Position numbers and translations under genes: made by a program. Under the pieces are notes generated by a model. That model was not told the origin of the DNA. It saw only the letters and a list, made by a program, of their open reading frames with translations, and made no database searches. DNA of 64,000 nucleotides from Limisphaerales bacterium (GTDB lineage: Bacteria; Verrucomicrobiota; Verrucomicrobiia; Limisphaerales; JAYPXF01), in contig JBLFYM010000001.1 of NCBI GenBank assembly GCA_047608975.1, forward strand, positions 66,816 to 130,815. The letters run 5' to 3'. The first letter of the stretch is position 1, and the number at the start of each line of letters is the position of its first letter. Positions 9,021 through 51,823 of this stretch are shown here, piece after piece.

Positions 9021-9223
9021 GATGTGCTGTCTTCGGGTGTCGCCTCGACGCAACCGAGATTAACTGCGGCGGGGGATTCGCAGCCAATACATTTTTCCGA
9101 TTGCAATGATCGCACCCTTGGATGGCCGCGCGATCTCGAAGCGAACCTTGGAATGCCTTGGTTTACCGCCTAATCTCAGGTCGATTACCACCGTCTTTTC
9201 TGCGTCCAATACCGATCTGCCCC

Positions 9224-12280: not shown

Positions 12281-12283
12281 GCC

Positions 12284-13771
12284 ATGAATCCGAATATCTC
12301 TCCGCAGGAAACCATCGATCTCACGCGCCGCGACTTTCTCGCGACCACCGGCATGGGCACGCTTGCCTTGGCCAATCTGTTGCTCAAGGACGGGCTTATC
12401 GCTCCGGGCGCGATGGCAGCGGGCCGGTCGGATCCGCTCGCGCCGCGGCAACCGCATCTCCCCCCGAAAGCGAAGAACTGTATCCTGATCTATTTCGAAG
12501 GTGCGCCGAGTCACGTGGATCTCTTTGATCCAAAGCCGAAGTTGAACGAGATGGATGGCAAAGCCTTGCCGGATGAGATGTTGGAGAAAGTGCGCTTCGC
12601 GTTCATCAAAAAGGAAAGTGTCCGCCTGATGGGCTCGCCGCGGAAGTTTACGAAGTATGGGCAGTGCGGCATGGATCTCAGTGACTTGCTGCCGCATCTC
12701 GGTGGCGTGGCGGATGAGATTGCCTGGCTGCGGGGAATGCATACGACTCAGTTCAACCATCATCCCGGCCAGTTGCTGATGAATAGTGGTTCGCCGCTCT
12801 TTGGTCGGCCGACGATGGGTGCGTGGTTAAACTACGGATTGGGGAGTGAGTCCGAAGATTTGCCGGGTTACGTGGTGCTGACCGCCGGACGAGGATCGAG
12901 TGGCGGATCGAGTGCCTGGTCGAGTGGCTTCTTGCCGACGAGTTATGCCGGTGTGCTGTTTCGCAATAGCGGTGATCCGGTACTGAATCTCTCCAACCCG
13001 CCGGGATTCACGAAGGAGATGCAGCATCTCGGTTTGGATGCGATTGGTGATCTGAACAAGCTCCGCTTCAAGCACGTCGCCGACCCCGAGATCTCATCGC
13101 GGATTGCGGCTTACGAATTGGCGGGGAGGATGCAGGCGTCGGCTCCAGAACTGATGGATCTGTCCGGTGAATCCGAGACGACCAAGGAAGCCTACGGTCT
13201 CAACCGCACGACGCCGAACACCAAGAACCGGGGTGGGGGAGCCGGGACTTACGAAACCTTCGCGCGCAACTGCCTACTCGCGCGCCGACTGGTTGAACGC
13301 GGCACGCGCTGCGTGACTCTGCTGCACGCCTCATGGGATCACCATAGCAACCTCGATAACGAACTGCCGTTCTGCGCGGGAATGTGCGATCAGCCAATTG
13401 CCGCCCTCATCAACGATCTCAAGATGCGCGGAATGCTGGATGAGACCATGGTGATTTGGGCTTCAGAATTTGGCCGTACGCCGCTGGGTGAGAATCGGAG
13501 CACTCGCGGGGGCGTCACCGGGCGCGATCATCATCCGTATGCGTTCACGACCTGGGCGGCAGGCGGTGGGCTCAAGGGTGGTGAGATCGTCGGTGAAACG
13601 GACGATCTGGGTTGGGGCGTCACGAAGGATCCGATCACGCCTCACGATCTTCATGCGACCGTACTGAATCAGTTTGGGTTCAACGCCGAGGAACTGACGT
13701 ATCGGTTTCAGGGGTTGGACTTCCGTCTGACCGGATTCGAAGGCGCGAATATCATCAAACAGATTGTTTGA
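12284..13771 (+). CDS. DUF1501 domain protein (sulfatase-like fold) with twin-arginine signal
   Basis: RRDFLATTGMGTLALA; ILIYFEGAPSHVDLFDPKP; WDHHSNL; WASEFGRTP; GRDHHP. It starts 3 nt after the stop of 9224..12280, the classic DUF1553/DUF1501 pair. Confidence 0.9.
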   Translation: MNPNISPQETIDLTRRDFLATTGMGTLALANLLLKDGLIAPGAMAAGRSDPLAPRQPHLPPKAKNCILIYFEGAPSHVDLFDPKPKLNEMDGKALPDEMLEKVRFAFIKKESVRLMGSPRKFTKYGQCGMDLSDLLPHLGGVADEIAWLRGMHTTQFNHHPGQLLMNSGSPLFGRPTMGAWLNYGLGSESEDLPGYVVLTAGRGSSGGSSAWSSGFLPTSYAGVLFRNSGDPVLNLSNPPGFTKEMQHLGLDAIGDLNKLRFKHVADPEISSRIAAYELAGRMQASAPELMDLSGESETTKEAYGLNRTTPNTKNRGGGAGTYETFARNCLLARRLVERGTRCVTLLHASWDHHSNLDNELPFCAGMCDQPIAALINDLKMRGMLDETMVIWASEFGRTPLGENRSTRGGVTGRDHHPYAFTTWAAGGGLKGGEIVGETDDLGWGVTKDPITPHDLHATVLNQFGFNAEELTYRFQGLDFRLTGFEGANIIKQIV

Positions 13772-29196: not shown

Positions 29197-30723
29197 ATGC
29201 GTGACAGTGATATAGGCACAGTTTATCTGGTTGGTGCGGGGCCCGGCGATGCGGGGCTCCTGACGATGCGCGGGGCGGAATTGATTGGTCGGGCGGATGT
29301 CTTGGTCTACGACGCGCTCGTCAACCCGGAGTTGCTCAAGCTCGCTCCCGCGGACGCGGAAGTCATTTACGGGGGGAAACGCTCCAAAGATCACGCTATT
29401 CCACAGGGAGAACTGAATCAGCTGCTGGTCGACAAGGCCAAAGAAGGCAAGACGGTCGTCCGCTTGAAAGGCGGCGATTCCTACCTTTTTGGCCGGGGTG
29501 GAGAAGAAGCCGAAGAGTTGGCTGATGGGGGAGTGGAGTTTGAGGTGGTTCCTGGGATTTCCTCTTTTTATGCCGCGCCGAATTACGCCGGTATTCCGAT
29601 TACGCATCGCGAGCATTGTTCAAGCTTTACGGTTTTGACCGGGCACGAAGATCCTACGAAGGACGAGAGCGGTATTGATTGGAAGAATCTCGCGGAGAAT
29701 CCCGGCACCAAGGTGGTGCTGATGGGCGTGGAGCGCATCGGATCGATCGCCGAGAAACTGACCGCGAACGGCTTGGCCGCAGATACCCCAGTCTGCATGG
29801 TGCGCTGGGGTACGCGTGGCGATCAGGAAACGATTGAAGGCACTTTGGCCACGATCGCCGGAATCGTTGAAGATAAGAAATTCAAGTCGCCGGCAGTGAC
29901 CGTGATCGGTGGCGTCGTAAAGCTTCGGGAAAAGCTGAACTGGTTCGAGAAGCGCCCGCTGTTCGGAAAGCGCGTGGTCGTGACCAGGACACGTCAGCAG
30001 GCCAGTCAGCTAAGCCGTCAACTCAGCGAGCTCGGGGCAGAGGTTCTGGAGATTCCGACAATCCGGACCACCGCTCCAGACGATCCGCAGCCTTTGGTCG
30101 ATGCGCTCATGGGACTCAACTCCTACAGCTGGCTGGTATTCACGAGTCCGAACGGAGTGGAATGGTTCTTCGATTTTTTCTTCAAGGCTTTCGAAGATCT
30201 CCGCGATCTGGGTGGCCCGCGGATTGCGGCGGTCGGACCGGCGACGGCCGAGAAGCTGAAGGCAATGCACCTCAAGGTCGACGTGATGCCGGACAAATAT
30301 GTGACGGCCGACGTGGCGTCTGCGATCGACAAGTTTGAAAGCGTCGAGAATCTCAATGTGCTTTTGCCTCGCGCGCTGGTCGCCAATCCAGAGCTGTCCA
30401 GGGATTTGGAAGCGCTCGGCGCGATTGTGGATGACGTTCCCTGTTATCAGACGGTTCCGGAAACTGAAGACGTGAACGGAGCGGCGGCGAAGCTGACAGA
30501 TCAAGGCGCGGATTGGATCACCTTTACCAGCAGCTCAACCGTGGAGAACTTTCATGCCCGATTTGATCTGCCTGATCTGATCGAGACCTATCCTGAAATC
30601 AAGCTCGCCTCGATCGGGCCCGAGACCAGTCGCGCGATTCGCGCCCTGAATCTGGAGCCCACCGTGGAGGCGGATGAACACACCATCAAAGGCCTGGTTC
30701 AGGCGCTGCGATCGGCAGACTGA
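29197..30723 (+). CDS. cobA: uroporphyrinogen-III C-methyltransferase fused to uroporphyrinogen-III synthase (CobA/HemD)
   Basis: ORF 29080..30723, ATG 29197. SUMT part: VYLVGAGPGDAGLLT, LKGGDSYLFGRGGEE, VPGISS. The C-terminal half is HemD-like: RVVVTRTRQQASQL...VFTSPNGV...ITFTSSSTV. Confidence 0.9.
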   Translation: MRDSDIGTVYLVGAGPGDAGLLTMRGAELIGRADVLVYDALVNPELLKLAPADAEVIYGGKRSKDHAIPQGELNQLLVDKAKEGKTVVRLKGGDSYLFGRGGEEAEELADGGVEFEVVPGISSFYAAPNYAGIPITHREHCSSFTVLTGHEDPTKDESGIDWKNLAENPGTKVVLMGVERIGSIAEKLTANGLAADTPVCMVRWGTRGDQETIEGTLATIAGIVEDKKFKSPAVTVIGGVVKLREKLNWFEKRPLFGKRVVVTRTRQQASQLSRQLSELGAEVLEIPTIRTTAPDDPQPLVDALMGLNSYSWLVFTSPNGVEWFFDFFFKAFEDLRDLGGPRIAAVGPATAEKLKAMHLKVDVMPDKYVTADVASAIDKFESVENLNVLLPRALVANPELSRDLEALGAIVDDVPCYQTVPETEDVNGAAAKLTDQGADWITFTSSSTVENFHARFDLPDLIETYPEIKLASIGPETSRAIRALNLEPTVEADEHTIKGLVQALRSAD

Positions 30724-30753
30724 AAGCAAGTTGGAGTTCACGCTTCGGCGTGT

Positions 30754-30773
30754 TTCGGGCTGATAAGCCCGAA
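30754..30773. terminator. hairpin between convergent genes
   Basis: TTCGGGCT-GATA-AGCCCGAA, a perfect 8-bp stem lying between the cobA/hemD stop (30723) and the ppx-like stop (30792). The flanking T run is weak (GAGTTT). Confidence 0.35.
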
Positions 30774-30791
30774 CGAGTTTGGGCCGGCACA

Positions 30792-31727
30792 CTACTCTAA
30801 GAGCAAGCCGGTCCGTATTCCACGGGTGCTGACCAGAAGTCGTTCGAGATCGAGTTCTTCCATGATCGCGAGATAGATCGCGGCACCGAACGGAATTACA
30901 TCGGCCCGTTCGGCTGGGATTCCGCGCAATTCCTTTCGCTGTGCGAGCGGTAGGTTCCACAATTTCTCGTTCAGCTCGCGGAGCAGGGGACGTGCAAACA
31001 CAGTTGCCTCCAGTTGCGCGCGATCGAACTCATCGGTCTCGTGGTACATCCGGGCAAGAAAAGTGGTGGTTCCGCCAACCCCAACGATGTCTGAGAGATC
31101 TGCGGCTTCCTGATGCAGTCCCGAGCTGACGATCGGCTCCGATCTGAGGAATTGCCTCACGAGGTCGCAGCATTGTTCCAATCCCGCGGTTCCGGGCGGA
31201 TCGTCGAATGAGGCGGTGGACATCGTGCGAACAGATCCAAGGGGAACGCTGATCGAGAAGTTGGGTTGCTCGTCCTGTCCAATGATGAACTCGGTGCTGC
31301 CACCGCCGACGTCGGCAACAAAGATCGTATCCGCCAGACCCGGTTGGGATCGGACGCCGCGATACACCAAGGCGGCCTCACGCTCGCCGCTGATGATCTC
31401 CGGTTCCTGACCGGAAACATCTGCGATCGCCTTGCGGAACTCTTCGTGGTTCTCGGCGTCCCGCGCGGCGCTGGTGGCAATAATCTTGAAGGAGGGGGAA
31501 TTGAGCGTGGAGGCAGTGCTTAGAAATCCTTCGATGACTTCCGCCGTGCGGGCGATGGCATCCGGTCGAAGTCGCTTGGTTTCATAGAGGCCGCGACCGA
31601 GTCGGGTCTGCGTGCTTCGTTCAAACAGCGGTTCAATCTGTTGCTGGTTGTCGATGCGGGCGACCAGCACCTTCACGGAGTTCGTTCCGATGTCGATGAC
31701 GGTGCGTACCTGAGATTCCTCTGCCAT
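30792..31727 (-). CDS. Ppx/GppA family phosphatase
   Basis: ASKHA-fold motifs VIDIGTNSVKVLVARI and VADVGGGSTEFIIG. 311 aa. Confidence 0.85.
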   Translation of the reverse strand: MAEESQVRTVIDIGTNSVKVLVARIDNQQQIEPLFERSTQTRLGRGLYETKRLRPDAIARTAEVIEGFLSTASTLNSPSFKIIATSAARDAENHEEFRKAIADVSGQEPEIISGEREAALVYRGVRSQPGLADTIFVADVGGGSTEFIIGQDEQPNFSISVPLGSVRTMSTASFDDPPGTAGLEQCCDLVRQFLRSEPIVSSGLHQEAADLSDIVGVGGTTTFLARMYHETDEFDRAQLEATVFARPLLRELNEKLWNLPLAQRKELRGIPAERADVIPFGAAIYLAIMEELDLERLLVSTRGIRTGLLLE

Positions 31728-31772
31728 GGCCGGAGCAATTTTGGGGGACGGATAGCGGATGTGGAAAACGGA

Positions 31773-32540
31773 CTATTTCCGCAGGATAGTGGTGATCTTT
31801 CGCCGGAGAAGGCGTTGGATTTTCTCCGCGGGCTGTTCGGCGTTCACGATGCTGAATTTGTATATTTCCTGGAGGTGAAGAAACGCGTCGACGAGCAGTC
31901 CCTGGTATCCCAGGAAGCTGTCGAACATGTCGCGTGACAGGCCCAGATCCATGCCGCTTTCCCAGTAGTCGAGTGACTGGTTCTTGGCGAAATTCCGCTG
32001 CACCAATGTTTCCGGAGTGGTCTGCAGATAGAACACCCCGTCGGGTTCCAGCGCGATGTCGTAGAGATTTCGCAGCCACGCGATATCCATGCCGCGCACC
32101 AGATCTCGAGCCATCAACGTGTAGATGTAGCGGTCGGCCAGCACGATCGATCCGGCCTTCAACGCCGGAATGATCAGGTTCTCCAACTGATCCGCGAAGT
32201 CGGTCGCGTAGAAAAGACTGAGGGTGGTTCGGCTGAGGATGTTGCCTTCCTGCGCCGTCTGAAGTTCCTCGCTGACGAGCGAGGAACGCTTCAAACCGAC
32301 CTGCACCGTCGAATGTCCGCCGCCTTCAAGCCATTCCACGAGTTCGTTGATCTGGGTGGAGCGACCGGAGCCGTCCGCTCCCTCAATGACGAAGAGCTTT
32401 CCCGCGAGCTTGCGCAAATCTACGCCCGGGATGCCGTGACCGTAGAAACGCTTGGCTGAACGTCCGGGGATTACAACGTCCAGATTGGGGTTGATGGTCC
32501 GCTTGCGCTTCGTTTTGGAAGTCGTCGTCCGCGTAGCCAT
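31773..32540 (-). CDS. thymidylate kinase-like P-loop kinase (non-canonical), paralogue A
   Basis: FVIEGADGSGRSTQ (Walker A), ATDFAD, LADRYIYTLMARDLVRG, DYWESGMDL. The canonical TREPGGT dTMP-site motif is not visible. Confidence 0.7.
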   Translation of the reverse strand: MATRTTTSKTKRKRTINPNLDVVIPGRSAKRFYGHGIPGVDLRKLAGKLFVIEGADGSGRSTQINELVEWLEGGGHSTVQVGLKRSSLVSEELQTAQEGNILSRTTLSLFYATDFADQLENLIIPALKAGSIVLADRYIYTLMARDLVRGMDIAWLRNLYDIALEPDGVFYLQTTPETLVQRNFAKNQSLDYWESGMDLGLSRDMFDSFLGYQGLLVDAFLHLQEIYKFSIVNAEQPAEKIQRLLRRKITTILRK

Positions 32541-32543
32541 GGT

Positions 32544-33227
32544 TCAGCTGCCGGTGGCAAATTGTTCGAGATCGATCTTGTCCGCGACCAGTCGACGCAC
32601 GAGGGCCTGCTGCGGTTCGATGCTGTCGTTGGCGTCCATGACGGTGAATTTGTATTCCGAACTCATGGCCAGATACTGTTCCAGCATTCGGCCCTGAAAG
32701 ATTCGGAAACTCTCTTCGATGTCGGTGGACAGGTTGAGATCCATTCCTGCCTCAAAATACTTCAATTGCGGACGCCCATCGAGGATCCGTGCCAGAGAAA
32801 CCTCCAGGCGGGCCTGAAAGAAGAACGTCACGTCTGGCTTTGCGGCAAATCTATAAAGGCCACGTACCCAGTCAGGCGGCACGCCGCGAACAACATCACG
32901 TGCAAAGGCTGTGTAGGCGTAGCGGTCACAGAGCACGAGGTAGCCGGCGCGGAGCAGGGGAACCAGTTGGCGCTCGTAACGATCGGCGAAGTCCGTGGCG
33001 TGAATCAGGCTAAAGGTCGTGGGTGTCAACAGGGTACGGTTTTTACCCTTGCTGGTGGCGCTCTTCACGAGCTTGGAGGAGTTCCATTCGGAGAAGTAAA
33101 CCTTGAGGCCGGAGAGTTCGAGCCAGCGTTTCAATAGGTAAATCTGGGTGGACTTCCCGGAACCATCCAAACCCTCAACAGCAATCAACCTGCCAGGAAA
33201 ACCCAATTCACCAAACGTCTTGTTCAT
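32544..33227 (-). CDS. thymidylate kinase-like P-loop kinase (non-canonical), paralogue B
   Basis: ORF 32544..33593 is over-extended. ATG 33227 gives MNKTFGELGFPGRLIAVEGLDGSGKSTQ. Also ATDFAD, LCDRYAYTAFARDVVRG, KYFEAGMDL. It ends 3 nt before paralogue A starts. Confidence 0.7.
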   Translation of the reverse strand: MNKTFGELGFPGRLIAVEGLDGSGKSTQIYLLKRWLELSGLKVYFSEWNSSKLVKSATSKGKNRTLLTPTTFSLIHATDFADRYERQLVPLLRAGYLVLCDRYAYTAFARDVVRGVPPDWVRGLYRFAAKPDVTFFFQARLEVSLARILDGRPQLKYFEAGMDLNLSTDIEESFRIFQGRMLEQYLAMSSEYKFTVMDANDSIEPQQALVRRLVADKIDLEQFATGS

Positions 33228-33348
33228 CCGATAGGTTTTTGAGCCTAAGTAGAGGCTTGCGGAATGACAAAGCAAAACCGAGTTGGAGGAGATGAGAAGC
33301 AGAGTTCGCGCTTGCAAATGGGCAGTTCTGATTTTGAATGGACTCCTG

Positions 33349-34746
33349 ATGTCTGCTGAACCAGCTAGTTTCAAATTTTCCCGGCGCGGGATTCTCCGCG
33401 CGGGGGCGTTGGGCGTTGCGGGCATCACCTTGGCTGATGTGTTGCGGCTGGAAGCGGCGGCGGGAATTCGTTCGTCACACAAGGCAGTGATCAACGTGCA
33501 TCTCGATGGCGGTCCTCCGCAAATGGATCTCATCGATCCCAAGCCGGACGCGCCGCGCGAACAACGGGGGGAGTTTGAATCCATTTCGACCAACGTGCCC
33601 GGTATTCATCTGACCGAGCTGATGCCGCAGATGGCGAAAGCGGCGGACAAGTTTGTCTTTCTGCGGTCACTGGTCGGAGCGGCCGGCCGCCACGACGCGT
33701 TTCAATGTCAGTCCGGGTTTAGCTTCAAGGATCTGTCCGGAATCGGTGGCCGTCCGGCGATGGGCTGTGTGGTGTCACAGCTGCAAGGCCAACCTACGGA
33801 CGCGATGCCCGCCTTCGTCGATTTGATGCAAGGCCGCCCCTTGGCGCGAAATAGTGCCCGCCCGGGTTTTCTGGGGCCTGCCTATCGGCCGTTCCGACCG
33901 GATCTGTCCCACTTGTTCAAGCGTCAGTTGGAACCGGGGATGCAGAGCGAGTTGGCGCGCCTCGGGAATAATCACACGCTGCAGCTTGAACTCACGGAAG
34001 GACTTACCGTGGGGCGGCTGGAAGGTCGCATGTCACTTGCCAAGGATTTTGATCTGCTCCGTCGCAACGTCGATCGAAGTGGTTCGATGGAAGCATTGGA
34101 CAAGTTTTCCCAACAGGCTTTGGGTATTCTGACATCCGGCCGGGTGGCCCGGGCGCTTGATCTGGAATCAGAGGATCGCCGGGTGTTGGACCGGTTTTCG
34201 CCGCGCATGAAGCGGGTTGATCCCACGCATTACACCACTGAGGGACCCGGTGCGGCGCGGAAGTTCTTGCTGGCCCGGCGGATGGTCGAGGCCGGCGCGC
34301 GATGTGTCAGCATTTCCCTCAGCGATTTCGACACACATCGGTCGAATGCCGAGCGAATGAGATTTCTCGGTCCGCTGATGGATCATTCGTTGGCCGCGCT
34401 CGTTTCAGATCTGGAAGAGCGCGGAATGCTCGACGATGTGATGATCATCGCCTGGGGCGAGTTTGGTCGCACACCCAAGGTGAATGACAAGGGCGGGCGG
34501 GATCACTGGCCGCGCGTGGCGATGGGAATCATGGCAGGCGGAGGGATTCGCGGCGGACAGGTGATCGGCTCCACCGATAAATACGCGTCGGAAGCGACCA
34601 GCAGCCCCGTGCATTATCAGGACGTCATCGCGACGCTCTATCAGCATCTCGGGATTGATGCGCGGAATGTGACGCTTACGGACACGACGGGCCGACCTCA
34701 GTATCTCGTGGATATCGGCGCACCGATCGCCCGGCTCTTCGCGTAG
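33349..34746 (+). CDS. DUF1501 domain protein with twin-arginine signal (no adjacent DUF1553 partner)
   Basis: ORF 33283..34746, ATG 33349: MSAEPASFKFSRRGILRAGALGVAGITLA. Also VINVHLDGGPPQMDLIDPKP, FDTHRSN, WGEFGRTP, GRDHWP. Confidence 0.85.
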   Translation: MSAEPASFKFSRRGILRAGALGVAGITLADVLRLEAAAGIRSSHKAVINVHLDGGPPQMDLIDPKPDAPREQRGEFESISTNVPGIHLTELMPQMAKAADKFVFLRSLVGAAGRHDAFQCQSGFSFKDLSGIGGRPAMGCVVSQLQGQPTDAMPAFVDLMQGRPLARNSARPGFLGPAYRPFRPDLSHLFKRQLEPGMQSELARLGNNHTLQLELTEGLTVGRLEGRMSLAKDFDLLRRNVDRSGSMEALDKFSQQALGILTSGRVARALDLESEDRRVLDRFSPRMKRVDPTHYTTEGPGAARKFLLARRMVEAGARCVSISLSDFDTHRSNAERMRFLGPLMDHSLAALVSDLEERGMLDDVMIIAWGEFGRTPKVNDKGGRDHWPRVAMGIMAGGGIRGGQVIGSTDKYASEATSSPVHYQDVIATLYQHLGIDARNVTLTDTTGRPQYLVDIGAPIARLFA

Positions 34747-34923: not shown

Positions 34924-36177
34924 TTACTTGTAGGCACCCATGGCGGGCGCGTCGGGATTGACCTCAGGGCCGAAGTATCGGAGACAGACGAGGGGCTCGG
35001 TGGTGCTGGTGTTCTCGAAGGTGACTCCGGATTTTGCCCCGGCTTCGGTACAGAAGTACTCGTCCTCAGTAAGCTCGGTGAAGCGGATGAGTTTCGGACT
35101 GTTCAACGGCTGGCCATTGATCGTGCCTTTGCCCTGCGTGCAGACGAGACCGTAGGCACCTTTGTCGGTGATCGTGCATTTCTGGCCGGGATCGACCGTC
35201 AATTCCTTGGCGGTGAAGTATTGCGTCTTCTTGATGCGACCGTAGACGATCCAACGATCGACATAGCCTTCAGCGGCGGTGTCGGCGACGGGGATCGGTT
35301 CGAGGTAGTGGTTGTCCTTGAAGTTTGGATCGCAGTTTCCTTCCCAATCGAGCTGGTTGACGATGAAGTCCAGATCCTTGTGTTTGGACTTGGGCATGTC
35401 CTTGACCAGGAGACTCCAGGGTACTTCGCGGCCTTCCACGAGTGACTGATACATTCCGAAGACATCTGAACCCCATTGTGGTTCGTAGGTGCAGAGTGAA
35501 CCGGGAGCGTGCAGGACACAGGGCGGAATCAACCAGCCGGTGCCGGGCTTCAGGCGGTAGGCTCGGCTGAGGTCCAAGATGCCGTTGTCACCTTTGTTCC
35601 AGTTCTCCAGGCACTTCCGGACCTGAGCCTTGGTGGTACCGGGTTCCAGCCCCATGAAGGTGTAAGGGAAGTTGTTGCCCACGTTGTTGTGCTGGGGCGG
35701 AAAGTAGTAGGATTCGGGTTTGCCTTCCTGCTTCACCAGCTTCGCCTGCGCGGCGCTTTGATGCATGTGATGCGGGATTGGGCCCATGTTGTCGAAGAAC
35801 TTGGAGTAGACCGGCCACTTGCCATACTTCTTCCAAATCTTGCTGCCGATGATCGTGGGGCCGCATTCCGACACGGCTTGGCGCAGGGTGAAGCGGCGCT
35901 TGCCGGCGACGACGTAGCTGAGGCCTTCGTCAGGGGTGCGATTGTCGTTTGCCGCCTCAGTGGTGGAGCCGAACCAGCGTTCGTCGATGCCGCCGCGATT
36001 CAGCCCGTAAGCGTAGGTGTCATCCGGGTGAAGTTTCAGCCGCAGTCCGGGTTGCAGGAAAGAGCGGGGGACCCAACAAGGAGCGAGCCGCAGGAGTCCT
36101 CCGGTTTCTTCAAGGCAGGCATCGACGATTTTTCCGACGCCCTTTTTGACTGTCTTTAATGAAGTAACTGTATTCAT
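34924..36177 (-). CDS. class I mannose-6-phosphate isomerase-like cupin protein (function uncertain)
   Basis: YSKFFDNMGPIPHHMHQ...GKPESYYF resembles the PMI type I pattern (K.LD....LS.QVHP....GK.E.WY). A later cupin His lies in PPCVLHAPGS. 417 aa. Confidence 0.5.
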   Translation of the reverse strand: MNTVTSLKTVKKGVGKIVDACLEETGGLLRLAPCWVPRSFLQPGLRLKLHPDDTYAYGLNRGGIDERWFGSTTEAANDNRTPDEGLSYVVAGKRRFTLRQAVSECGPTIIGSKIWKKYGKWPVYSKFFDNMGPIPHHMHQSAAQAKLVKQEGKPESYYFPPQHNNVGNNFPYTFMGLEPGTTKAQVRKCLENWNKGDNGILDLSRAYRLKPGTGWLIPPCVLHAPGSLCTYEPQWGSDVFGMYQSLVEGREVPWSLLVKDMPKSKHKDLDFIVNQLDWEGNCDPNFKDNHYLEPIPVADTAAEGYVDRWIVYGRIKKTQYFTAKELTVDPGQKCTITDKGAYGLVCTQGKGTINGQPLNSPKLIRFTELTEDEYFCTEAGAKSGVTFENTSTTEPLVCLRYFGPEVNPDAPAMGAYK

Positions 36178-42517: not shown

Positions 42518-42670
42518 TCACCCATCCGAAAGTGCCTTGCCGTTTCCCGGCGCGATATCCAATTGCCTCGTAACGGCTTGGTGTCCTTCGTGGTCTGTCG
42601 CCTTGGTACGGCGTGGCACAGACTTCAAAATCCTTGCCGGAATTCTTCGGATGCGAACAATGCACCGCAC

Positions 42671-45600
42671 ATGAAACGCATCAGAGGCATTCTGGCACTG
42701 ACCCTATGTTTTCTGTCTGCATCCGGTTTTGCCGCCGCGCCCGCCAAGCTGAAGGCTCTGCTCGTGGCCGGGGGGTGTTGTCACGATTACAAAGGGCAGT
42801 ACAAGGTTCTTTCCGAAGGCATCCAAGCCCGCGCCAACGTGCAGGTGGATGTCTGGTGGACGGATGACCGGAGCACCAACCCGCCGCTCGACCTCTACGA
42901 CAATCCCGACTGGGCCAAAGGCTACGACGTGATCATTCACGACGAATGTGCCGCGGGTAACAAGGACCTGGAGGTCTTTCAGCGAATCCTCGACGCCCAC
43001 AAGACCATTCCCGCCATTCATCTGCATTGCGCGATGCACAGCTTTCGGAATGGCACGGACGGGTGGTTTAAGCACCTCGGTCTGCAGTCATCCAGTCACG
43101 GTCCCCAGGCCCCTATCGAGGTGAAGTTCAGCAAGAGCGCGCATCCCATCACCGCCACCCTCAAGGACTGGACCACGATCCGCGAAGAACTCTACAATAA
43201 CCTCAAAACCTTCGGCATCACCCCGCTTGCGACCGGTAAGCAGGTCATCAAACGCAAGGGCAAGGAACAGGTCGTGGAGCACATCGTCGTTTGGACGAAC
43301 GAGAAGCATGGTGCCCGCAGCTTCAGCACCACCTTGGGGCACAACACCGAGACCGTCGCCGATCCGCGCTACCTCGAACTCGTTACCCGCGGTCTGCTTT
43401 GGGCCTGTGACCAGTTGGACCCCTCTGTTCTAGGCAAGCCTTACCAGGGTGAAAACAAGATCACCTTCGTCAAAGCCAAACCCCAGAAGGCGAAGCCCGC
43501 TCCGAAGGACGCCACGCTGGTAACCGTGACCGCCAGTAGTGTCCAGGGTGGTCGCGATCCGTGGATGGCCATCGATGGCAACAAGAAAACCCGTTGGTGC
43601 GCCGCCAACAGCAGCAAGCCGCAATCGCTACAACTCGAGTTCGACAAGCCGCAGGAACTCACCGGCGTGAACATCAACTGGGAGAGCCAGACTACCACTT
43701 ACGGCTACAAACTTGAGAGTTCCCTCGACGGTGAAAAATGGAATCTTGTGCACGACGCCACCGGCAACCGGGAACCGGGGGATACTTCCGACAAATTCCC
43801 CGCCGCCAAACTCAAGTTCCTCCGTGTCACCGGCACGAGCGCTGGCAGTTGGATCAGCCTTTGGGAACTCACCGTCCAAGGCAAAGGTATCAAATCCCTC
43901 TACCCGAAACTCGACCAGAAGACCGCCGCCAAACTCAAGACCGCTGCTAACGATCCACTCAAAGCCGGCGGCAACATCAAGCCCCAGATCGTCAAACTCA
44001 CGGCGGCAGAAGAAGCTGCAATTTTGAAGGACGTCAAAGTTCCCGAGGGATTCGAAGCCACACTTTTCGCCCCGTCACAAACCGCGAACTACCCGGTCTA
44101 TGTCGCTGCATCCCCCGGCGGCGATCTCTACGTCTCCAGCGACGGCAATGGTTCACTGGGCCGCAATCCCAATCGTGGTCGCATCCTCCGCCTCCGCGAT
44201 AATGACGGTGATGGTCGCGCTGACGAAGTGACCGAATTTGTAAAGAACATCGATTCGCCGCGCGGAATCATCTGGGATCACGACCGCCTCTACGTGCTGC
44301 ACCCACCGCACATCACTGTCTATTTCGATCGGGACGGGGACGGCATCGCCGAGAGTTCCAAACGTCTCATCCAGGGCATCGCCTTCGGCTTCGGCAATCG
44401 TCCGCCCGATCATACGACCAACGGACTCGAACTCGGCACCGACGGTTGGATCTACATCGCCGGTGGCGACTTCGGATTCATGGAAGCCCGCGGCACCGAC
44501 GGTCGCCGACTCCAACACCGGGGTGGGGGAGTCATCCGTTTTCGCCCTGACGGCACGGGTCTGGAAATCTTCGCGACCGGCACCCGCAACATCCTCGGCA
44601 CGCCCATGAGCCCGCTCCTCGACCTCTTCGCCCGCGACAACACCAACGACGGCGGCGGTTGGGACGTTCGCTTCCATCACTTCAGTGGACTCGAAGACCA
44701 TGGCTACCCGCGCCTCTACAAAAACTTCGCCAACGAACACATTCACCCGCTCGCCGACTACGGTGGCGGTTCCGGCTGTGGCAGCGTCTACATCCACGAA
44801 CCCGGATTCCCCACCGAATGGGCTCATGCCCCCTTTACCTGCGACTGGGGCCGCGCCGGACTCTTCCGCCACAGCGTCAAACGCCAAGGTGCCGGATTCA
44901 TCGAGACCGAAGCTCCGAAGACCTTCATCAAAGTGACCCGTCCCACCGACGCCGATGTGGACGGCATGAGCCGCGTCTACCAGGCCAGCTGGAAAGGCCC
45001 GGCCACCTTCAACTGGGCGGGACCTGACCACGGCTACATCACCCGCGTCACGCCGAAGGCCTTCAAGGCAAAGGCTCTCCCTGATTTCGACAAGCTCGAG
45101 GACGCTCAACTGATTCAGCTCCTTGAATCTCCCAGCCACATTCGCGCTCTCACGGCCCAGCGCACTCTGCTCCGTCGCGATGTTTCCGAGGTCACCACCA
45201 AATCGCTGATGGGATTGGCCAGCAACAAATCCAAAGAACTCCGCGCCCGCGTGGGAGCCCTCTACGCCATCACCCAACGCGGCATCGACAGCAGCCACAG
45301 TGAAAGCGTCATCAAGACCGTTTCCCCGCTCGCAAAAGACGCCACCATCCAACCTTTTCTACTGCGCGCCCTCGGCGACATGGGCATCGACCAATTGACC
45401 AAAGGCAAAACCGGTCCTGCCCCCGCTGATCTGTTGATCGCCGGAGCCAGGAGCAACGATCCCCGGACACGGGTCGAAGCCATCATCGCCGCTACGCGCC
45501 AGCAGAACCAAGCCGCAGCTGAGACCATTGCCCAAAGTCTCGGACACCCAGATCCGGTCATTGCCCACACCGCCTTCCGTGCCTTGACCAAACTGATCTC

Positions 45601-47077
45601 GCCCGGTCCCGCGTTGGCTATTCTCGACACCGCCGCCAGCTCGGAAGCCCAACGTGCCGGCGCATCGCACGCCCTCATGCGCATGCACAAGAAAGACGTT
45701 ATTGATGCCCTTATCAAACGCCTGCCCTCCGCTTCGAAAGAATCGCAGCCATTTATCCAGGCCGCTCTGTGCCGTCTCTATCACCGCGAAGCGGATTGGA
45801 CCGGCGACTCCTGGGGCACCCGCCCTGACACGCGCGGCCCCTACTACCAACTGGAAACTTGGGACGAATCTGCAAGCATCCTCAGTGCTCTCAAAACCGC
45901 TTTGGTCAAAGCCACGGCCGGTGAAGCTGCTCAGTTGATCACTGAGATGAACCGCAATCGCATCCACGACAATGACGCCCTCAACCGCATCATTCAGGTC
46001 GCGACTGATGACGACGCCCACGTCATCACCGCAGTCGCCCAACTCGCGGCGGCGAAAGACATCCCAGCCAAAGCTGTCCCCCTGCTCATCAAAGCTGCGC
46101 GCCGGGAAGACACCCCACCAATGGTTCTCTCGCAGACCATCGAATGTCTCAACAAGGTCAACCTCCCGGAGGCCCTCGCAGCAACCCTTTCTGCCCTTTC
46201 AGTTCTGGATCACGTCAAAGGCGCGGGCAAAGCACAGAGTGCCGCGCAAAATGCCTTTCTGAAGAATCGAAACCTCGACAACCAATACGCGGCCCTCGCC
46301 GAGCTTGCGGCCAAGGACACCGAATCCGGTGAAACGCGTTGGGCCCACGCCGGCCTGCTGGAACTCGCCTCTCGCAAAAACTCAGGCCCCGAGGCCAAAG
46401 CCCACGCCACCAAGGAAATTGACCTCGCCTGGCAGGACCCGGCCCGCCGCGTCCTCCTGATGAAACTCGCCGGAGACCTGAGGAACCATCATCTGGACGC
46501 CCGCATCGCCGCCGCCATGAACGACTTCGATCCCGATGTCGTCAAGGTAGCCAAAGCCGCCGCCAGGCGATTGAAAATCCAGCCCCCCGGTGCCGACAAA
46601 ACTCCCAAGTTGGAAACGCTGAAGCTCGAAGATGCGTTGGCTCAGGCCATCAAGTTGAAAGGTGACCCCGCCCTCGGCGAAGCCGTGTTCATGAAGGCCG
46701 CCTGCGCCTCCTGTCACACCGTCAGTCAAGACCAGCCGCTAAAAGGTCCCTACCTCGGGAATATCGCCAACACCTACCGTCGCAACGACCTCGCACTATC
46801 CATCCTCGATCCCAACAAAATCATCGCTCAAGGCTTCGCCACGCACTCCATCACGATGGCCAATGAATTCGAATATACCGGCTTCATCACCAAGGAAGCC
46901 GCCGACCAGATCACGCTCCGAGACGTCACCGCACGAGAACACATCCTGAGGAAATCTGAGATTGAACAACGGAAGACGCTGCCAAACTCCATCATGCCCC
47001 CCGGCCTGTTGAACGCCTTCTCCCTCAAAGAGTTCGCGAGTTTGCTAGACTATTTGGAAGGTCTTTCGAAGAATTGA
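42671..47077 (+). CDS. giant secreted multidomain protein: ThuA-like / F5-8 type C (discoidin) / beta-propeller dehydrogenase-like / HEAT repeats / C-terminal haem-binding (CxxCH) domain
   Basis: ORF 42563..47077. ATG 42671 gives MKRIRGILALTLCFLSASGFAAAP. ThuA-like: KALLVAGGCCHDY...IHLHCAMHSF. Discoidin-like: AIDGNKKTRWCA...LQLEFDKPQELTGVNINW. Pirellula/Verrucomicrobium-type dehydrogenase domain: VPEGFEATLFA...DGRADE. HEAT-like repeats follow. C-terminal GEAVFMKAACASCHTV. Confidence 0.85.
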   Translation: MKRIRGILALTLCFLSASGFAAAPAKLKALLVAGGCCHDYKGQYKVLSEGIQARANVQVDVWWTDDRSTNPPLDLYDNPDWAKGYDVIIHDECAAGNKDLEVFQRILDAHKTIPAIHLHCAMHSFRNGTDGWFKHLGLQSSSHGPQAPIEVKFSKSAHPITATLKDWTTIREELYNNLKTFGITPLATGKQVIKRKGKEQVVEHIVVWTNEKHGARSFSTTLGHNTETVADPRYLELVTRGLLWACDQLDPSVLGKPYQGENKITFVKAKPQKAKPAPKDATLVTVTASSVQGGRDPWMAIDGNKKTRWCAANSSKPQSLQLEFDKPQELTGVNINWESQTTTYGYKLESSLDGEKWNLVHDATGNREPGDTSDKFPAAKLKFLRVTGTSAGSWISLWELTVQGKGIKSLYPKLDQKTAAKLKTAANDPLKAGGNIKPQIVKLTAAEEAAILKDVKVPEGFEATLFAPSQTANYPVYVAASPGGDLYVSSDGNGSLGRNPNRGRILRLRDNDGDGRADEVTEFVKNIDSPRGIIWDHDRLYVLHPPHITVYFDRDGDGIAESSKRLIQGIAFGFGNRPPDHTTNGLELGTDGWIYIAGGDFGFMEARGTDGRRLQHRGGGVIRFRPDGTGLEIFATGTRNILGTPMSPLLDLFARDNTNDGGGWDVRFHHFSGLEDHGYPRLYKNFANEHIHPLADYGGGSGCGSVYIHEPGFPTEWAHAPFTCDWGRAGLFRHSVKRQGAGFIETEAPKTFIKVTRPTDADVDGMSRVYQASWKGPATFNWAGPDHGYITRVTPKAFKAKALPDFDKLEDAQLIQLLESPSHIRALTAQRTLLRRDVSEVTTKSLMGLASNKSKELRARVGALYAITQRGIDSSHSESVIKTVSPLAKDATIQPFLLRALGDMGIDQLTKGKTGPAPADLLIAGARSNDPRTRVEAIIAATRQQNQAAAETIAQSLGHPDPVIAHTAFRALTKLISPGPALAILDTAASSEAQRAGASHALMRMHKKDVIDALIKRLPSASKESQPFIQAALCRLYHREADWTGDSWGTRPDTRGPYYQLETWDESASILSALKTALVKATAGEAAQLITEMNRNRIHDNDALNRIIQVATDDDAHVITAVAQLAAAKDIPAKAVPLLIKAARREDTPPMVLSQTIECLNKVNLPEALAATLSALSVLDHVKGAGKAQSAAQNAFLKNRNLDNQYAALAELAAKDTESGETRWAHAGLLELASRKNSGPEAKAHATKEIDLAWQDPARRVLLMKLAGDLRNHHLDARIAAAMNDFDPDVVKVAKAAARRLKIQPPGADKTPKLETLKLEDALAQAIKLKGDPALGEAVFMKAACASCHTVSQDQPLKGPYLGNIANTYRRNDLALSILDPNKIIAQGFATHSITMANEFEYTGFITKEAADQITLRDVTAREHILRKSEIEQRKTLPNSIMPPGLLNAFSLKEFASLLDYLEGLSKN

Positions 47078-47094
47078 GCCGAAGACTTTTCGAC

Positions 47095-47826
47095 ATGGGA
47101 GAACCTCGTTTACTGATCATGGGTGGGTGCAACGGTGCCGGCAAAACAACCTTGGCTCGCGAACTCTTGCCTATGCTTGGGATCGCTCGGTTCCTGAATG
47201 CGGATGAAATTGCGCGAGGTCTTTCTCCTTTGGACATCTCGCTTGCAAACGTGAGTGCGGGGCGCTTGCTGTTGGCGGAGGTGGCGAGTCTGATTCAAAC
47301 CGGCAAAGAGTTCGCGATGGAATCCACACTGAGCGGTCGGGCGCAGGTCCGCCTGATCCAGCGGGCGAAGGAATCGGGCTATCGATTTGTTTTGCACTAC
47401 GTCCTGCTGGACTCTGCCAAACAATCCAGCGAACGCGTGAAACTGAGGACATCGCTGGGGGGCCACGATGTGCCTGAAGCAGATCTTGCCCGACGGTTCG
47501 ACCGGAGCGTTGCGAATTTTTGTGAAAACTACCTTCCGCTTGCGGACGACTGGGTGGTATGGGAAAATTCAAATCCACCGGCGCGGCAAATCGCGTCGGA
47601 CCAGACTCATTCCAAAGAACAAATCATCGCCATGTTAAAAGGCACTCATCTTCAGGAAACACCCGACGCCAATCAATCGGAACAGGTCCGCCTTGGCTTG
47701 GAGGCGAGCCGACGCGCGACGGCAAAGATGCTCGATTACTACCGCCGCATGGGCGTGAAGGTGACCCCGCAGATGACTTTGGCTGATCCTGATGAAGTCT
47801 TGGATGTCCCGCGTGGGGTGCTTTAA
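47095..47826 (+). CDS. zeta-toxin-like / COG4185-type P-loop kinase
   Basis: ORF 47074..47826 (its TTG overlaps the upstream TGA); ATG at 47095. Walker A LIMGGCNGAGKTTLA, FLNADEIA, and the kinase-core context VLHYVLLDSAKQSSERV. Confidence 0.65.
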   Translation: MGEPRLLIMGGCNGAGKTTLARELLPMLGIARFLNADEIARGLSPLDISLANVSAGRLLLAEVASLIQTGKEFAMESTLSGRAQVRLIQRAKESGYRFVLHYVLLDSAKQSSERVKLRTSLGGHDVPEADLARRFDRSVANFCENYLPLADDWVVWENSNPPARQIASDQTHSKEQIIAMLKGTHLQETPDANQSEQVRLGLEASRRATAKMLDYYRRMGVKVTPQMTLADPDEVLDVPRGVL

Positions 47827-49325: not shown

Positions 49326-50246
49326 TTAAGACTTTTGAGAGGGATGGCTTTTGTCTTGGACTACCTGCGCTTGTTGGCGACCGTAATCTTCCAGTAAACT
49401 GTTTAGTGGTTTTGTTTCCTTGTTTTCGTCTGCTACTAAATAGTCCAAAACAGCCGTTGCCGTCGTAGGGTTCGTTGCGAATGGGACTTGGTATACATCA
49501 CAAAGTCTACCCAGGGCTTCTATGTCCGCATGGTGAGGATGTGCTGATAGTGGATCACGAAAGAAAATAATGCCTTTGATATTGTCTGTGGAAATCATCT
49601 GGCCGATTGCCTGGTCTCCGCCTAGTGGGCCTGACTTTACTTTTTTGGATAAGACAATTTGCGCTTCTTTATATAATAACGTTCCAGTGGTTCCAGTGGC
49701 CACGAGTGGGAATTTGTTTATTTTATTCAGGTTAGATTTGACGAATTGAACCAACGATTCCTTCATCTCGTTATGCGCTACTAACCCCAGATATTTAACG
49801 TTATCTTGAGTGAAGAATATTTTATTAGCGGTAGCGTTCTTTTTATACAGGTCTTCGAAGATATACTTGCACTTGAGGGCTACTTTTGAGTCCTGGCGCA
49901 GGAGTGTTTCATACGCGGTAAGGTCAAATTCCAAAACCTCTGTGGGTTCCATGGCAACAGCGTCAGCAGTCCGCTTTCCCTGGTCCGAAAACATAGCTTC
50001 GCCAAATACCTCTCCTTTAGACAAGCTTGCTATCAAGTGATTATCATGATGAATATTCACTTGTCCACTGATGGTGAACATCAGGGAAGTAGCAGGTTCT
50101 CCTCCCTTGAGGATAATCGCTTTTTCACCATACTTACGTGTGGTCGACACGCCGATTAGCTGAAGAATTTCATGATTCGCCAATCGTCCAGCTAATGGAG
50201 TAGTTTTTGAGAGAATACCAATTAAATCTGCACTCGTTTTGCTCAT
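49326..50246 (-). CDS. mgsA: cyclic-nucleotide-binding domain / methylglyoxal synthase fusion protein
   Basis: N-terminal cNMP-binding barrel with phosphate-binding cassette GEVFGEAMF...GKRTADAVA. C-terminal MGS domain: LGLVAHNEMK, LVATGTTGTLL, SGPLGGDQAIGQMI, IIFFRDPLSAHPHHADIEAL. Confidence 0.8.
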   Translation of the reverse strand: MSKTSADLIGILSKTTPLAGRLANHEILQLIGVSTTRKYGEKAIILKGGEPATSLMFTISGQVNIHHDNHLIASLSKGEVFGEAMFSDQGKRTADAVAMEPTEVLEFDLTAYETLLRQDSKVALKCKYIFEDLYKKNATANKIFFTQDNVKYLGLVAHNEMKESLVQFVKSNLNKINKFPLVATGTTGTLLYKEAQIVLSKKVKSGPLGGDQAIGQMISTDNIKGIIFFRDPLSAHPHHADIEALGRLCDVYQVPFATNPTTATAVLDYLVADENKETKPLNSLLEDYGRQQAQVVQDKSHPSQKS

Positions 50247-50488: not shown

Positions 50489-51823
50489 CTATTTCTTTTT
50501 CCCGAGGTCCTTGATCATCTGGCAGATGTACTCGACGTTTTCGAGTGACTCGGTAATCGCTTTCGGGAGGTCGGTGGCGATCTGGCGGGAATCGGCGCTG
50601 GTCAGTAGATCAGGGTTCTCTTCCGACGGGCTGCCCGGAGTGACGGAATCGACGAGCTTTTGCTGCTCGGCGAGCATGGGGGTGATGCGATTGACAGTGT
50701 CTTTGACGTAGTGGATGCGGTGGGAAAGGGTTTGGAGCGGCGATTGGAGGCGCGTCGCCAGATCTTGCGAATCGGTGGCGGTGGATTCACGGGCTTCGAG
50801 GAGTTTCTTGGTGAGGAAAGCGGTCTGGGATTCCATCTCCTTATGCTTGGAGAGATCGCGGGCGACGATGACGAGATGGGGTTCGTTGTCGATCTTCTCG
50901 CGGATGGCGCAAACGCGAGCTTCAAGGTGGCGCCAGGTACCATTCTTGTGTTGGAGGCGGAATTCCAGGATCTGGCAGGTTTCCTGATTGATGCAGGCGG
51001 AGATGGAGGCGGTGGCTGCCTCCGTGTCGTCAGGATGCAGCCATTCGAAAATCGAACTGTCCTGCGAACCCTCGAGATTGCGCCCGAGGTTTTTCATGAC
51101 GGAAGGGCTGAAGTATTCGGGCTTCCCTTCGACGCTCATCACGATGATGAGGTCGGCGGCGTTCTCGGCGATCAGTTTGAACCGTTCCTCGCTGAGGCGC
51201 AGTCGTTGTTCGGAGCGTTGATAGTTGTCGACGTTTTGTTGGAGGATGCTGATGGAGTTCCGCAGATCGTTGGTGCGCGCATTGATGATGTCTTCGAGCT
51301 GGTCGAATCGCAGTCGGGCTTCCTGCTGCAGGCGCCACTTCTCGGTCATCGCACAGGCAAGCTGCAGGACTTCCACGTTGTCGAACGGTTTCTTGAGGAT
51401 GACGAGGCGGTCGGATTGGCCGAACTTGCCGATCATTTCGTCCCAGGAATAATCTGAGTAGGCTGTGCAAATGACGACCTGAAGGTCGGGGTCGGCTTCC
51501 CAGAGGTGGGTGGTAGTTTCGATCCCGTCCCAGCCTGGTGGCATCCGGACATCGACGAAGGCGAGCGCGAAGGGTGCCTTTTGGGCGAGCGCTTCCTTGG
51601 TCTGCTCGAGCGCTTCCTGGCCTTGGGATGCGAAGGTGAGTTCGTAATCTGTGTAGTTTGCCTTGGCCGGGGCATCTTCGCCAAACAACGCAGACTCGGC
51701 CGCCTCGAGTTCCGAATCTCCGGCGGGAGCGTTGGCGAGGATCTTACGGAAATCTTCGTGAATGGCCTGATTGTCATCGACGATCAGAATTCGTCGATTT
51801 TTTGGGATGGTTTGCTCGCTCAA
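50489..51823 (-). CDS. response regulator with PAS domain and helical C-terminal region (no recognisable enzymatic output)
   Basis: REC: RILIVDDNQAIHEDFRKIL...LAFVDVRMPPGWDG...LKKP. A coiled coil follows, then PAS (ERFKLIAENAADLIIVMS...HKNGTWRHLEARV). The TTG start overlaps the upstream stop (TTGA) and is preceded by AAGGA. Confidence 0.8.
   Translation of the reverse strand: MSEQTIPKNRRILIVDDNQAIHEDFRKILANAPAGDSELEAAESALFGEDAPAKANYTDYELTFASQGQEALEQTKEALAQKAPFALAFVDVRMPPGWDGIETTTHLWEADPDLQVVICTAYSDYSWDEMIGKFGQSDRLVILKKPFDNVEVLQLACAMTEKWRLQQEARLRFDQLEDIINARTNDLRNSISILQQNVDNYQRSEQRLRLSEERFKLIAENAADLIIVMSVEGKPEYFSPSVMKNLGRNLEGSQDSSIFEWLHPDDTEAATASISACINQETCQILEFRLQHKNGTWRHLEARVCAIREKIDNEPHLVIVARDLSKHKEMESQTAFLTKKLLEARESTATDSQDLATRLQSPLQTLSHRIHYVKDTVNRITPMLAEQQKLVDSVTPGSPSEENPDLLTSADSRQIATDLPKAITESLENVEYICQMIKDLGKKK

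Follow-up and report, generated by a model that had tools for sequence, protein, structure and literature searches.

A 64,000-nucleotide (nt) stretch of contig JBLFYM010000001.1 from a Limisphaerales bacterium, designated the window, carries three codirectional genes on its minus strand, which we designated A, B and ppx (Table 1). Together these genes very probably encode a verrucomicrobial PPK3-type polyphosphate (polyP) kinase and its exopolyphosphatase. A and B encode paralogues with the thymidylate kinase (Tmk) fold, and ppx encodes a Ppx/GppA-family phosphatase. The operon is genuine and belongs to an already published family whose basic biology has been explained; the finding thus confirms existing knowledge and brings no surprise. 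The gene structure, the family assignment, the orthology to archaeal subunits, the residue pattern, and the conservation of both the pairing and the ppx linkage were observed directly.

The PPK3 family was described in Sulfolobus acidocaldarius, in which two 'thymidylate kinases' adjoin a ppx gene (Höfmann et al., J Biol Chem 2026, PMC12995831; preprint 10.1101/2024.08.28.610084). Saci_2019 and Saci_2020 form a heteromeric polyphosphate kinase, SaPPK3, as an α2β2 complex. Saci_2019 is the catalytic subunit (cPPK3), and Saci_2020 (rPPK3) is inactive alone and confers an approximately tenfold gain in activity at a 1:1 ratio (PMC12995831). SaPPK3 synthesizes polyP and acts as a polyP-dependent ADP kinase; the reaction is reversible, and the direction from polyP and ADP to ATP is strongly favoured. 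The enzyme uses ADP, and GDP more weakly, and nucleoside monophosphate (NMP) kinase activity was not reported (PMC12995831). Within the Tmk superfamily, PPK3 constitutes a clade of its own that occurs mainly in Sulfolobaceae and Nitrososphaeraceae, plus 'a few taxonomically scattered bacteria', and its predicted operons always contain both subunits and often contain polyP genes (PMC12995831). The texts of the paper and the preprint make no mention of Verrucomicrobiota.

A and B depart from housekeeping thymidylate kinases

Homologues of A and B are named 'dTMP kinase' in public annotation, and a housekeeping role would make A, or both proteins, a thymidylate kinase that converts dTMP and ATP to dTDP, with the adjacency to ppx being coincidental. 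Both proteins matched the Pfam profile Thymidylate_kin (PF02223) well above its gathering score of 27 (A, 73.7 bits; B, 72.3 bits), and the closest solved relative, Sulfurisphaera tokodaii ST1543, was first reported as an unusual thymidylate kinase. Furthermore, no other tmk gene was found in the 64-kb window, to which the search was limited, and the same search of the window found no PPK1 or PPK2 gene. We nevertheless regard a housekeeping role as very improbable, and the sequences of A and B are not those of a housekeeping Tmk.

A and B are 41% identical to each other over 205 amino acids (aa) (E = 5e-53), and Thymidylate_kin was the single Pfam family matched by either protein at E ≤ 0.01, with no match to the PPK2 family (PF03976). 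An initial annotation, made from the DNA sequence alone, had listed motifs shared by the two proteins, and all of these were present: the Walker-A stretch (VEGLDGSGKSTQ in A and IEGADGSGRSTQ in B), ATDFAD in both proteins, the DRY-region stretch (DRYAYTAFARDVVRG in A and DRYIYTLMARDLVRG in B), and the GMDL segment (YFEAGMDL in A and YWESGMDL in B). It had also stated that the TREPGGT loop of Tmk is absent from both, and in our alignment the loop indeed fell on a gap, after which A reads EWNSS and B reads GLKRS. The further statement that the arginine-rich lid had been replaced by the GMDL segment was right in part. The segment is present, as part of an E-[AS]-G-x-D insertion of approximately 10 residues that lies right after the lid and is also found in archaeal cPPK3, but the lid itself was not wholly replaced, and its arginines R147 and R152 in A and R182 in B are retained.

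Both proteins scored under the cut-off (83.25 bits) of the curated NCBIfam dTMP-kinase equivalog TIGR00041 (A, 79.2 bits; B, 79.8 bits), and their identity to E. coli Tmk was 25-28% (tblastn). Residues of the thymine and phosphate-acceptor site were replaced. The positions aligned with F74, R78, Y108 and Q109 of E. coli Tmk, which we take from its structure to be dTMP-contact residues, are occupied in A and B by H/Y, F, A and R, respectively. Among solved structures, the best relative of both proteins was ST1543 (2plr, 4nzy, 4rzx and 5h70; E = 1.3e-57 for A and 3.4e-37 for B), to which A is 47% identical (2plr/5h70), while true Tmk structures matched A and B at E values of approximately 1e-12 at best. 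When an AlphaFold2 (AF2) model of B (predicted local distance difference test score, pLDDT, of 88.9) was used in a Foldseek search, ST1543 chains were the top matches, ahead of all true Tmks, with target-normalised template modelling (TM) scores of 0.86-0.93. In neighbor-joining (NJ) trees rooted on E. coli Tmk, a long branch parted every PPK3-type sequence from Tmk. Hence, in the comparison with true Tmk by profile search and phylogeny that the initial annotation had called for, neither paralogue grouped with bona fide Tmk.

The archaeal biochemistry also argues against a thymidylate kinase. No dTDP was formed by Saci_2019, as assessed by 31P nuclear magnetic resonance (NMR), or by Saci_2020, whereas the real Tmk of S. 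acidocaldarius is the separate, canonical Saci_0893, which does form dTDP; ST1543 (STK_15430) is a cPPK3 orthologue, and the earlier study that described it as a Tmk had tracked ADP formation only (PMC12995831). In summary, A and B share with canonical Tmk (E. coli b1098, PDB 4tmk) the fold, the P-loop, the DRX motif, a lid arginine, the overall length and the PF02223 match, but differ from it in the replaced TREPGG loop and base-site residues, the post-lid insertion and the sub-cut-off score. They also differ in that their genes occur as an obligate unequal pair, and this strict pairing, the recurrent ppx linkage and the Ppx-domain fusion described below would all be unexpected for a Tmk.

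A corresponds to the catalytic subunit and B probably to the regulatory subunit

The archaeal catalytic subunits matched A better than B in BLAST searches (Saci_2019, 187 bits to A and 139 to B; STK_15430, 197 and 136), and the archaeal regulatory subunits matched B better than A (Saci_2020, 75 bits to A and 102 to B; the S. tokodaii r subunit, 84 and 115). In reciprocal comparison, A was thus the best match of the archaeal catalytic subunits and B that of the regulatory ones, with identities to these orthologues of 45-47% for A and approximately 30% for B. A clade of A and the archaeal cPPK3s that excluded all r-type sequences was recovered in 89.5% of 200 NJ bootstraps. In a first NJ tree, built from BLOSUM62 distances, the two archaeal rPPK3s did not join B but branched off basally to all other PPK3 sequences, probably as a long-branch artefact of using only one outgroup, and the tree was set aside. 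Owing to this misplacement, we relied on the reciprocal BLAST matches, the shared substitutions and the 200-replicate bootstrap with corrected distances.

The two subunits were further distinguished by their basic residues. In an alignment of 141 sequences, columns were counted as conserved and basic if, within every catalytic-type group (verrucomicrobial, Sulfolobales and others), 80% or more of the sequences held K or R there. Thirteen such columns were found across the c-type groups, and A carries all 13. The B-type sequences replace six of them (K62 to Q, R64 to G, R83 to Q, R86 to N, R152 to N and K156 to D in A numbering; Q97, G99, Q118, N121, N187 and D191 in B). At three of these positions (Q83, N86 and D156 in A numbering), the replacements are identical in the B-type sequences and the archaeal rPPK3s. 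A carries a net charge of +3, and the core of B one of -6. This pattern matches the published statement that a proposed basic polyP cleft is conserved in cPPK3 and not in rPPK3 (PMC12995831), with the columns placed here by alignment rather than on coordinates.

A also retains the features expected of an ATP site, namely a Walker A of GSGKST (K25), a DRY motif (R102) and the lid residues R147, R152 and K156, together with the EWNSS and EAGMDL motifs of the family. Among its homologues, GSGKST was present in 120 of 120 and DRY in 119 of 120. In common with SaPPK3/ST1543, the window has neighbouring genes for Tmk-fold paralogues, c preceding r, that share an operon with a Ppx/GppA gene; neither subunit retains the dTMP-site residues, and the EAGxD lid insertion is shared. 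These comparisons identify A, with high confidence, as a cPPK3 orthologue, and B, with confidence that is good but short of complete, as an rPPK3 orthologue.

The initial annotation had proposed that the Tmk-fold paralogues form a heteromeric kinase linked to nucleotides or polyP rather than a housekeeping Tmk. By analogy with the archaeal PPK3 biochemistry, this proposal appears to have been essentially right. What can be added is that the family has already been published and that the paralogues are unequal, one being catalytic and the other probably regulatory.

The third gene encodes a short Ppx/GppA-family phosphatase

The product of the third gene, which the initial annotation had named a Ppx/GppA phosphatase, matched the Pfam family Ppx-GppA (PF02541) with 174 bits over residues 21-310. 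Its closest structure was the Aquifex aeolicus PPX/GppA (2j4r and 1t6c; 308-315 aa), which it matched over its full length with E = 5e-31. The A. aeolicus protein is likewise a two-domain actin-like phosphatase of approximately 310 aa, and the DIG(T/S)NS, GGGSTE and GxGGT phosphate-binding motifs of the two proteins align, although the sequence relation between them is distant. Of the C-terminal HD-like domains III and IV, the window protein has neither. In S. acidocaldarius and S. tokodaii, the ppx gene lies upstream of the kinase genes and encodes 411-417 aa, whereas in the window it lies downstream and encodes the shorter, 311-aa form.

Because the Ppx/GppA family includes GppA enzymes, the locus could in principle be an alarmone or nucleotide operon, with the phosphatase serving as a pppGpp 5'-phosphohydrolase and a guanine or modified nucleotide being the substrate of the Tmk-like pair. 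Consistent with this idea, the nearest structure is that of the A. aeolicus enzyme, which binds ppGpp, and the score of the window protein against the NCBIfam model restricted to exopolyphosphatases (TIGR03706) was 225.6 bits, below the cut-off of 307. The residues of the nucleotide-base pocket, however, are conserved in neither A nor B, and relatives of the locus have a sugar kinase of the ROK family between the pair and ppx. In those loci whose called genes were inspected one at a time, no RelA/SpoT-type gene was present. The characterised orthologue, moreover, uses polyP with ADP, and GDP more weakly, and no NMP kinase activity was reported for it (PMC12995831). An alarmone function is therefore highly implausible, and we return to the reading of the locus as a PPK3-type kinase with its exopolyphosphatase.

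The c-r pair is widely conserved and the ppx linkage is recurrent

A pattern scan of species-representative genomes yielded at least 551 stretches that were confirmed as relatives, out of 600 matches listed, and the best 80 of these were compared. Nearly all of the 80 were labelled Verrucomicrobiota, mostly of the Limisphaerales/Pedosphaera group. The A-type gene was directly followed by a second Tmk-like gene in 79 of the 80 verrucomicrobial loci, the exception being a short contig. This second gene gave a B-type score in 78 of the 79 loci and was nearer to A in the remaining one (L065). The pairing was also found in three other lineages, comprising a metagenome-assembled genome (MAG) of the Acidobacteriota ('Acidoferrales'), in which the c-r genes are followed by a long-form PPX, and two further non-verrucomicrobial contigs that carry the c-r pair alone.

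Linkage to ppx was judged in the 67 loci with enough downstream sequence. A ppx gene lay within 3 kb downstream and on the same strand in 25 loci and elsewhere in the locus in five more (30 of 67 in total). Conservation of this synteny among relatives, which the initial annotation had put forward as a check, therefore held in the 25 verrucomicrobial genomes, in Sulfolobales and in the Acidobacteriota MAG, and did not hold in the remaining loci judged. The ROK-family sugar kinase gene lay immediately 3' of the r gene in 33 of the 67 loci, and c-r-ROK-ppx was the commonest layout among the loci that keep ppx (e.g. L005, with ROK at L005:11487-12470). The layout c-r-ppx without ROK was found in the window and in L022. 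The ROK kinase was considered as a polyP-glucokinase, a role that was not adopted given its weak match to the polyphosphate glucokinase profile (43 bits; cut-off, 250). Its score against the ROK glucokinase subfamily, 229.5 bits, was also under the cut-off of 260.35. In the L005 contig, genes for an OmpR-type response regulator and a PAS histidine kinase (L005:6348-8261) lie approximately 1.7 kb upstream of c-r on the same strand, and no such pair lies beside the window operon.

A HMMER search of 1.84 billion cluster representatives returned 339 clusters (50% identity) at E ≤ 1e-30, and natural fusions were found among the proteins. P0363 (460 aa) is a single-chain tandem of c and r. P0384 and P0406 contain two Tmk-like domains and the Ppx-GppA HD-like domain III (a class of 650-696 aa); P0408 was provisionally grouped with them on account of its comparable size and the two stretches matched in it. 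The Walker A of the r half was degenerate in both fusions that were read, with GH in P0363 and GV in P0384. As judged from their domain content, these fusions are Rosetta-stone evidence for a link between c and r and for a link between the kinase and Ppx. A further apparent fusion, the 444-aa P0123, was rejected, as it looks like a frameshifted gene call with a junk middle and a truncated r half. PPK3-like Tmk domains were also seen within larger multidomain proteins (P0436, P0448 and P0469, of 1030-1237 aa, and P0458 and P0466, of 1610-2575 aa). One type of these proteins combines an MFS transporter, the Tmk-like region and a DUF2252/APH kinase-like domain, and another combines an 'InPase' inorganic pyrophosphatase with the Tmk-like region, to which P0458 adds an ART-PolyVal domain.

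B differs from the described regulatory subunits

Several observations weigh against reading the locus as a PPK3 operon. In published rPPK3s the DRX arginine is replaced, which was given as the cause of their inactivity (PMC12995831), whereas B keeps DRY (D136-R137-Y138), as do 120 of 120 B-type homologues, and the published loss therefore does not extend to B. R145, R149 and R182 are retained in B and in all 40 B-type sequences sampled, and B could still bind nucleotide or even catalyse. A single r-type clade that unites the bacterial and archaeal sequences was recovered in only 52-60% of NJ bootstraps, and fewer than half of the related genomes had the ppx linkage. Genes for SixA, CHAD and Pst were all absent from the 64-kb window. 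Finally, the evidence from the window consists of genes, from which the enzymatic activity and the A-B complex are predicted through the orthologues.

The archaeal loci provided a direct comparison. The S. acidocaldarius operon was described as sixA-ppx-cPPK3-rPPK3-CHAD, with Saci_2021 as the CHAD protein (PMC12995831). When the loci of S. acidocaldarius (L088) and S. tokodaii (L089) were re-read, both had the order sixA-ppx-cPPK3-rPPK3, followed by a gene of approximately 210 aa without a Pfam match. We note that the 'PPK3' of the biocatalysis papers is seemingly another enzyme, which we take to be a PPK2-family protein of Ruegeria pomeroyi. The window differs from the SaPPK3 system in its lack of SixA and CHAD genes and in its host, a mesophilic verrucomicrobium. 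Both archaeal rPPK3s have DGY in place of DRY, so that glycine occupies the position of the arginine kept in B, and it is with these two sequences that the published DRX statement was compared.

In B, the lysine of the Walker A is replaced by arginine (GSGRST, R60). This sequence was present in 117 of 120 B-type homologues, and a Walker-A lysine in the first gene with arginine in the second was the pattern in 73 of the 80 verrucomicrobial genomes. The r gene of the three other lineages also has a Walker-A arginine, as does the S. tokodaii rPPK3 (GSGRT; L089:5626-6240) but not Saci_2020 (SSGKT; L088:5621-6250). In this limited sample, alteration of the Walker A may be a more general mark of r subunits than loss of the DRX arginine.

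The retained residues raise the possibility of a heteromer with two active sites, in which B is a second catalytic subunit, slower or of different specificity, or a nucleotide-sensing subunit (e.g. for GDP or AMP, or for ATP/ADP). The conservation of D136-R137-Y138, R145, R149 and R182 would fit such a role, as would the Walker-A substitution, which is conservative and fixed rather than decaying, and the 65-75% identity of B-type sequences across Verrucomicrobiota, which indicates strong constraint. A Walker-A Lys to Arg change, however, normally cripples phosphoryl transfer in P-loop kinases. B also lacks six basic residues that are found in every catalytic-type sequence, the P-loop of the r half is fully degenerate in the natural fusions, and Saci_2020 is inactive by itself. 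Two active sites thus seem unlikely, and we favour the reading of A as the catalytic subunit of a PPK3-type enzyme with B as its predicted non-catalytic partner.

B further differs from the archaeal rPPK3s, which lack such a segment, in a basic N-terminal extension of approximately 45 aa that contains an FYGHGIP motif. In B-type sequences the extension has a median length of 33 aa and a median net charge of +5, and 93 of 120 homologues carried FYGHGIP. Residues 1-20 of B are disordered in the AF2 model, and the blocks that follow have mean confidences of 80 (residues 21-30) and 94 (residues 31-40) and are without regular secondary structure. In a European Nucleotide Archive (ENA) metagenome contig that encodes an identical A protein (L001:10688-12371), B lacks 22 residues of the extension, including FYGHGIP (233 aa, as in P0121), and ppx was called at only 143 aa. 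These oddities of B and ppx in L001 may reflect strain variation or assembly damage.

The retention of the DRY, ARD/VRG and lid arginines, the fixed Walker-A substitution and the basic N-terminal arm led us to consider what the bacterial r subunit might do. It might serve as a nucleotide-binding sensor of energy charge, or as a subunit that tethers the enzyme to polyP or to granules, and so gate the direction of the catalytic subunit. On this view, rPPK3 would have been marked ancestrally by the Walker-A change from lysine to arginine, and the DRX arginine would have been lost in Sulfolobus later, as a lineage-specific decay. We put this forward tentatively and regard it as rather doubtful.

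Proposed function of the operon

The polyP kinase activity of the pair, its lack of dTMP kinase activity, the activation by the second subunit and the α2β2 state would be carried over from the archaeal orthologues. A would bind ATP or ADP through the Tmk P-loop, the DRY arginine and the lid, and its conserved basic residues, in place of a dTMP pocket, would hold the end of the polyP chain. Phosphate could then be transferred reversibly between polyP and ADP/ATP. B, which lacks most of the basic residues and has arginine for the Walker-A lysine, would most likely have no catalysis of its own, and would probably join A in a heteromer (α2β2 in Sulfolobus) and raise its activity. The short Ppx/GppA enzyme, if co-transcribed, would trim polyP to orthophosphate. 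The operon might thereby set the level of polyP, which, at a declining ATP/ADP ratio, would serve as a reserve for the regeneration of ATP.

The pairing of an inactive with an active module in PPK3 has been likened to class II PPK2 (e.g. P. aeruginosa PA3455; PMC12995831). Both systems place an inactive P-loop kinase module beside an active one and carry out polyP-dependent nucleotide phosphorylation. They differ in that class II PPK2 belongs to another P-loop kinase family and has AMP as acceptor, as opposed to ADP in the characterised PPK3, and in that the modules of A and B are separate polypeptides.

Organization of the locus and other features of the window

The positions of the genes and of the associated features are given in Table 1. 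The open reading frame (ORF) coordinates confirmed the arrangement given in the initial annotation, with three codirectional genes separated by gaps of 3 nt between the A stop and the B start (32541-32543) and 45 nt between the B stop and the ppx start (31728-31772). This spacing suggests that A, B and ppx are co-transcribed. The longer ORF that contains A opens with TTG; the ATG at 33227 was taken as the correct start because an identical 227-aa public protein (P0001) and the homologues begin there. P0001 is named as from a 'Verrucomicrobiia bacterium' MAG. A scan of positions 30500-33700 for sigma-70 promoter and terminator consensus sequences found nothing above shuffle expectation.

Table 1. 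Features of the putative PPK3 operon and its upstream region (window positions).
Feature	Position	Strand	Description
Gene A	32544-33227	minus	227 aa; cPPK3-like, predicted catalytic subunit; ATG-started part of ORF 32544-33593
Gene B	31773-32540	minus	255 aa; rPPK3-like, presumed regulatory subunit
ppx gene	30792-31727	minus	311 aa; short two-domain Ppx/GppA-family phosphatase
N-terminal extension of B	32406-32540	minus	aa 1-45; net charge +9; FYGHGIP motif
Divergent intergenic region between gene A and DUF1501 gene (plus)	33228-33348		presumed operon promoter region, placed by position

The neighbours in the window are housekeeping genes or genes of the Planctomycetes-Verrucomicrobia-Chlamydiae (PVC) type, namely tpiA, pgk, secG, a fused uroporphyrin-III methyltransferase/synthase gene, and DUF1501 and DUF554 genes. 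The DUF1501 gene at 33283-34746 (plus) is divergent from the PPK3 operon and is the second of its kind; the first follows a PSCyt1/PSCyt2/PSD1 (DUF1549/DUF1553) gene at 9122-13771 (plus), a pairing that is typical of PVC genomes. Two genes upstream of the operon lies an ORF of 417 aa (34924-36177, minus) that had no Pfam match and was present in all four near-identical contigs.

Elsewhere in the window, a 250-aa ORF similar to Zeta-toxin/AAA_33 P-loop kinases (47074-47826, plus) has its start 4 nt ahead of the point where an ORF of 1504 aa (42563-47077) stops. The L001 counterpart of the latter (1472 aa, running past the locus) contains ThuA, F5/F8-type C and DUF7133 domains, and weaker cytochrome c and HEAT domains. 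A 306-aa protein with cyclic-nucleotide-binding and MGS-like domains is encoded at 49326-50246 (minus), and adjoining its gene are a response-regulator/PAS gene and a PAS histidine kinase gene (50489-53931).

Implications for polyphosphate metabolism

The analysis adds to the published family that PPK3 is widespread in Verrucomicrobiota, that its r subunit there has a DRX arginine together with a Walker-A Lys to Arg change, and that this subunit carries a conserved basic N-terminal arm. As the bacterial and archaeal r subunits alter different catalytic residues, the comparison between them offers a clean mutational handle on the activation of c. If the bacterial pairs act like SaPPK3, many soil and freshwater bacteria would make and spend polyP by way of an enzyme annotated as 'dTMP kinase', and genome-based inference of both phosphorus cycling and thymidylate metabolism would be affected.

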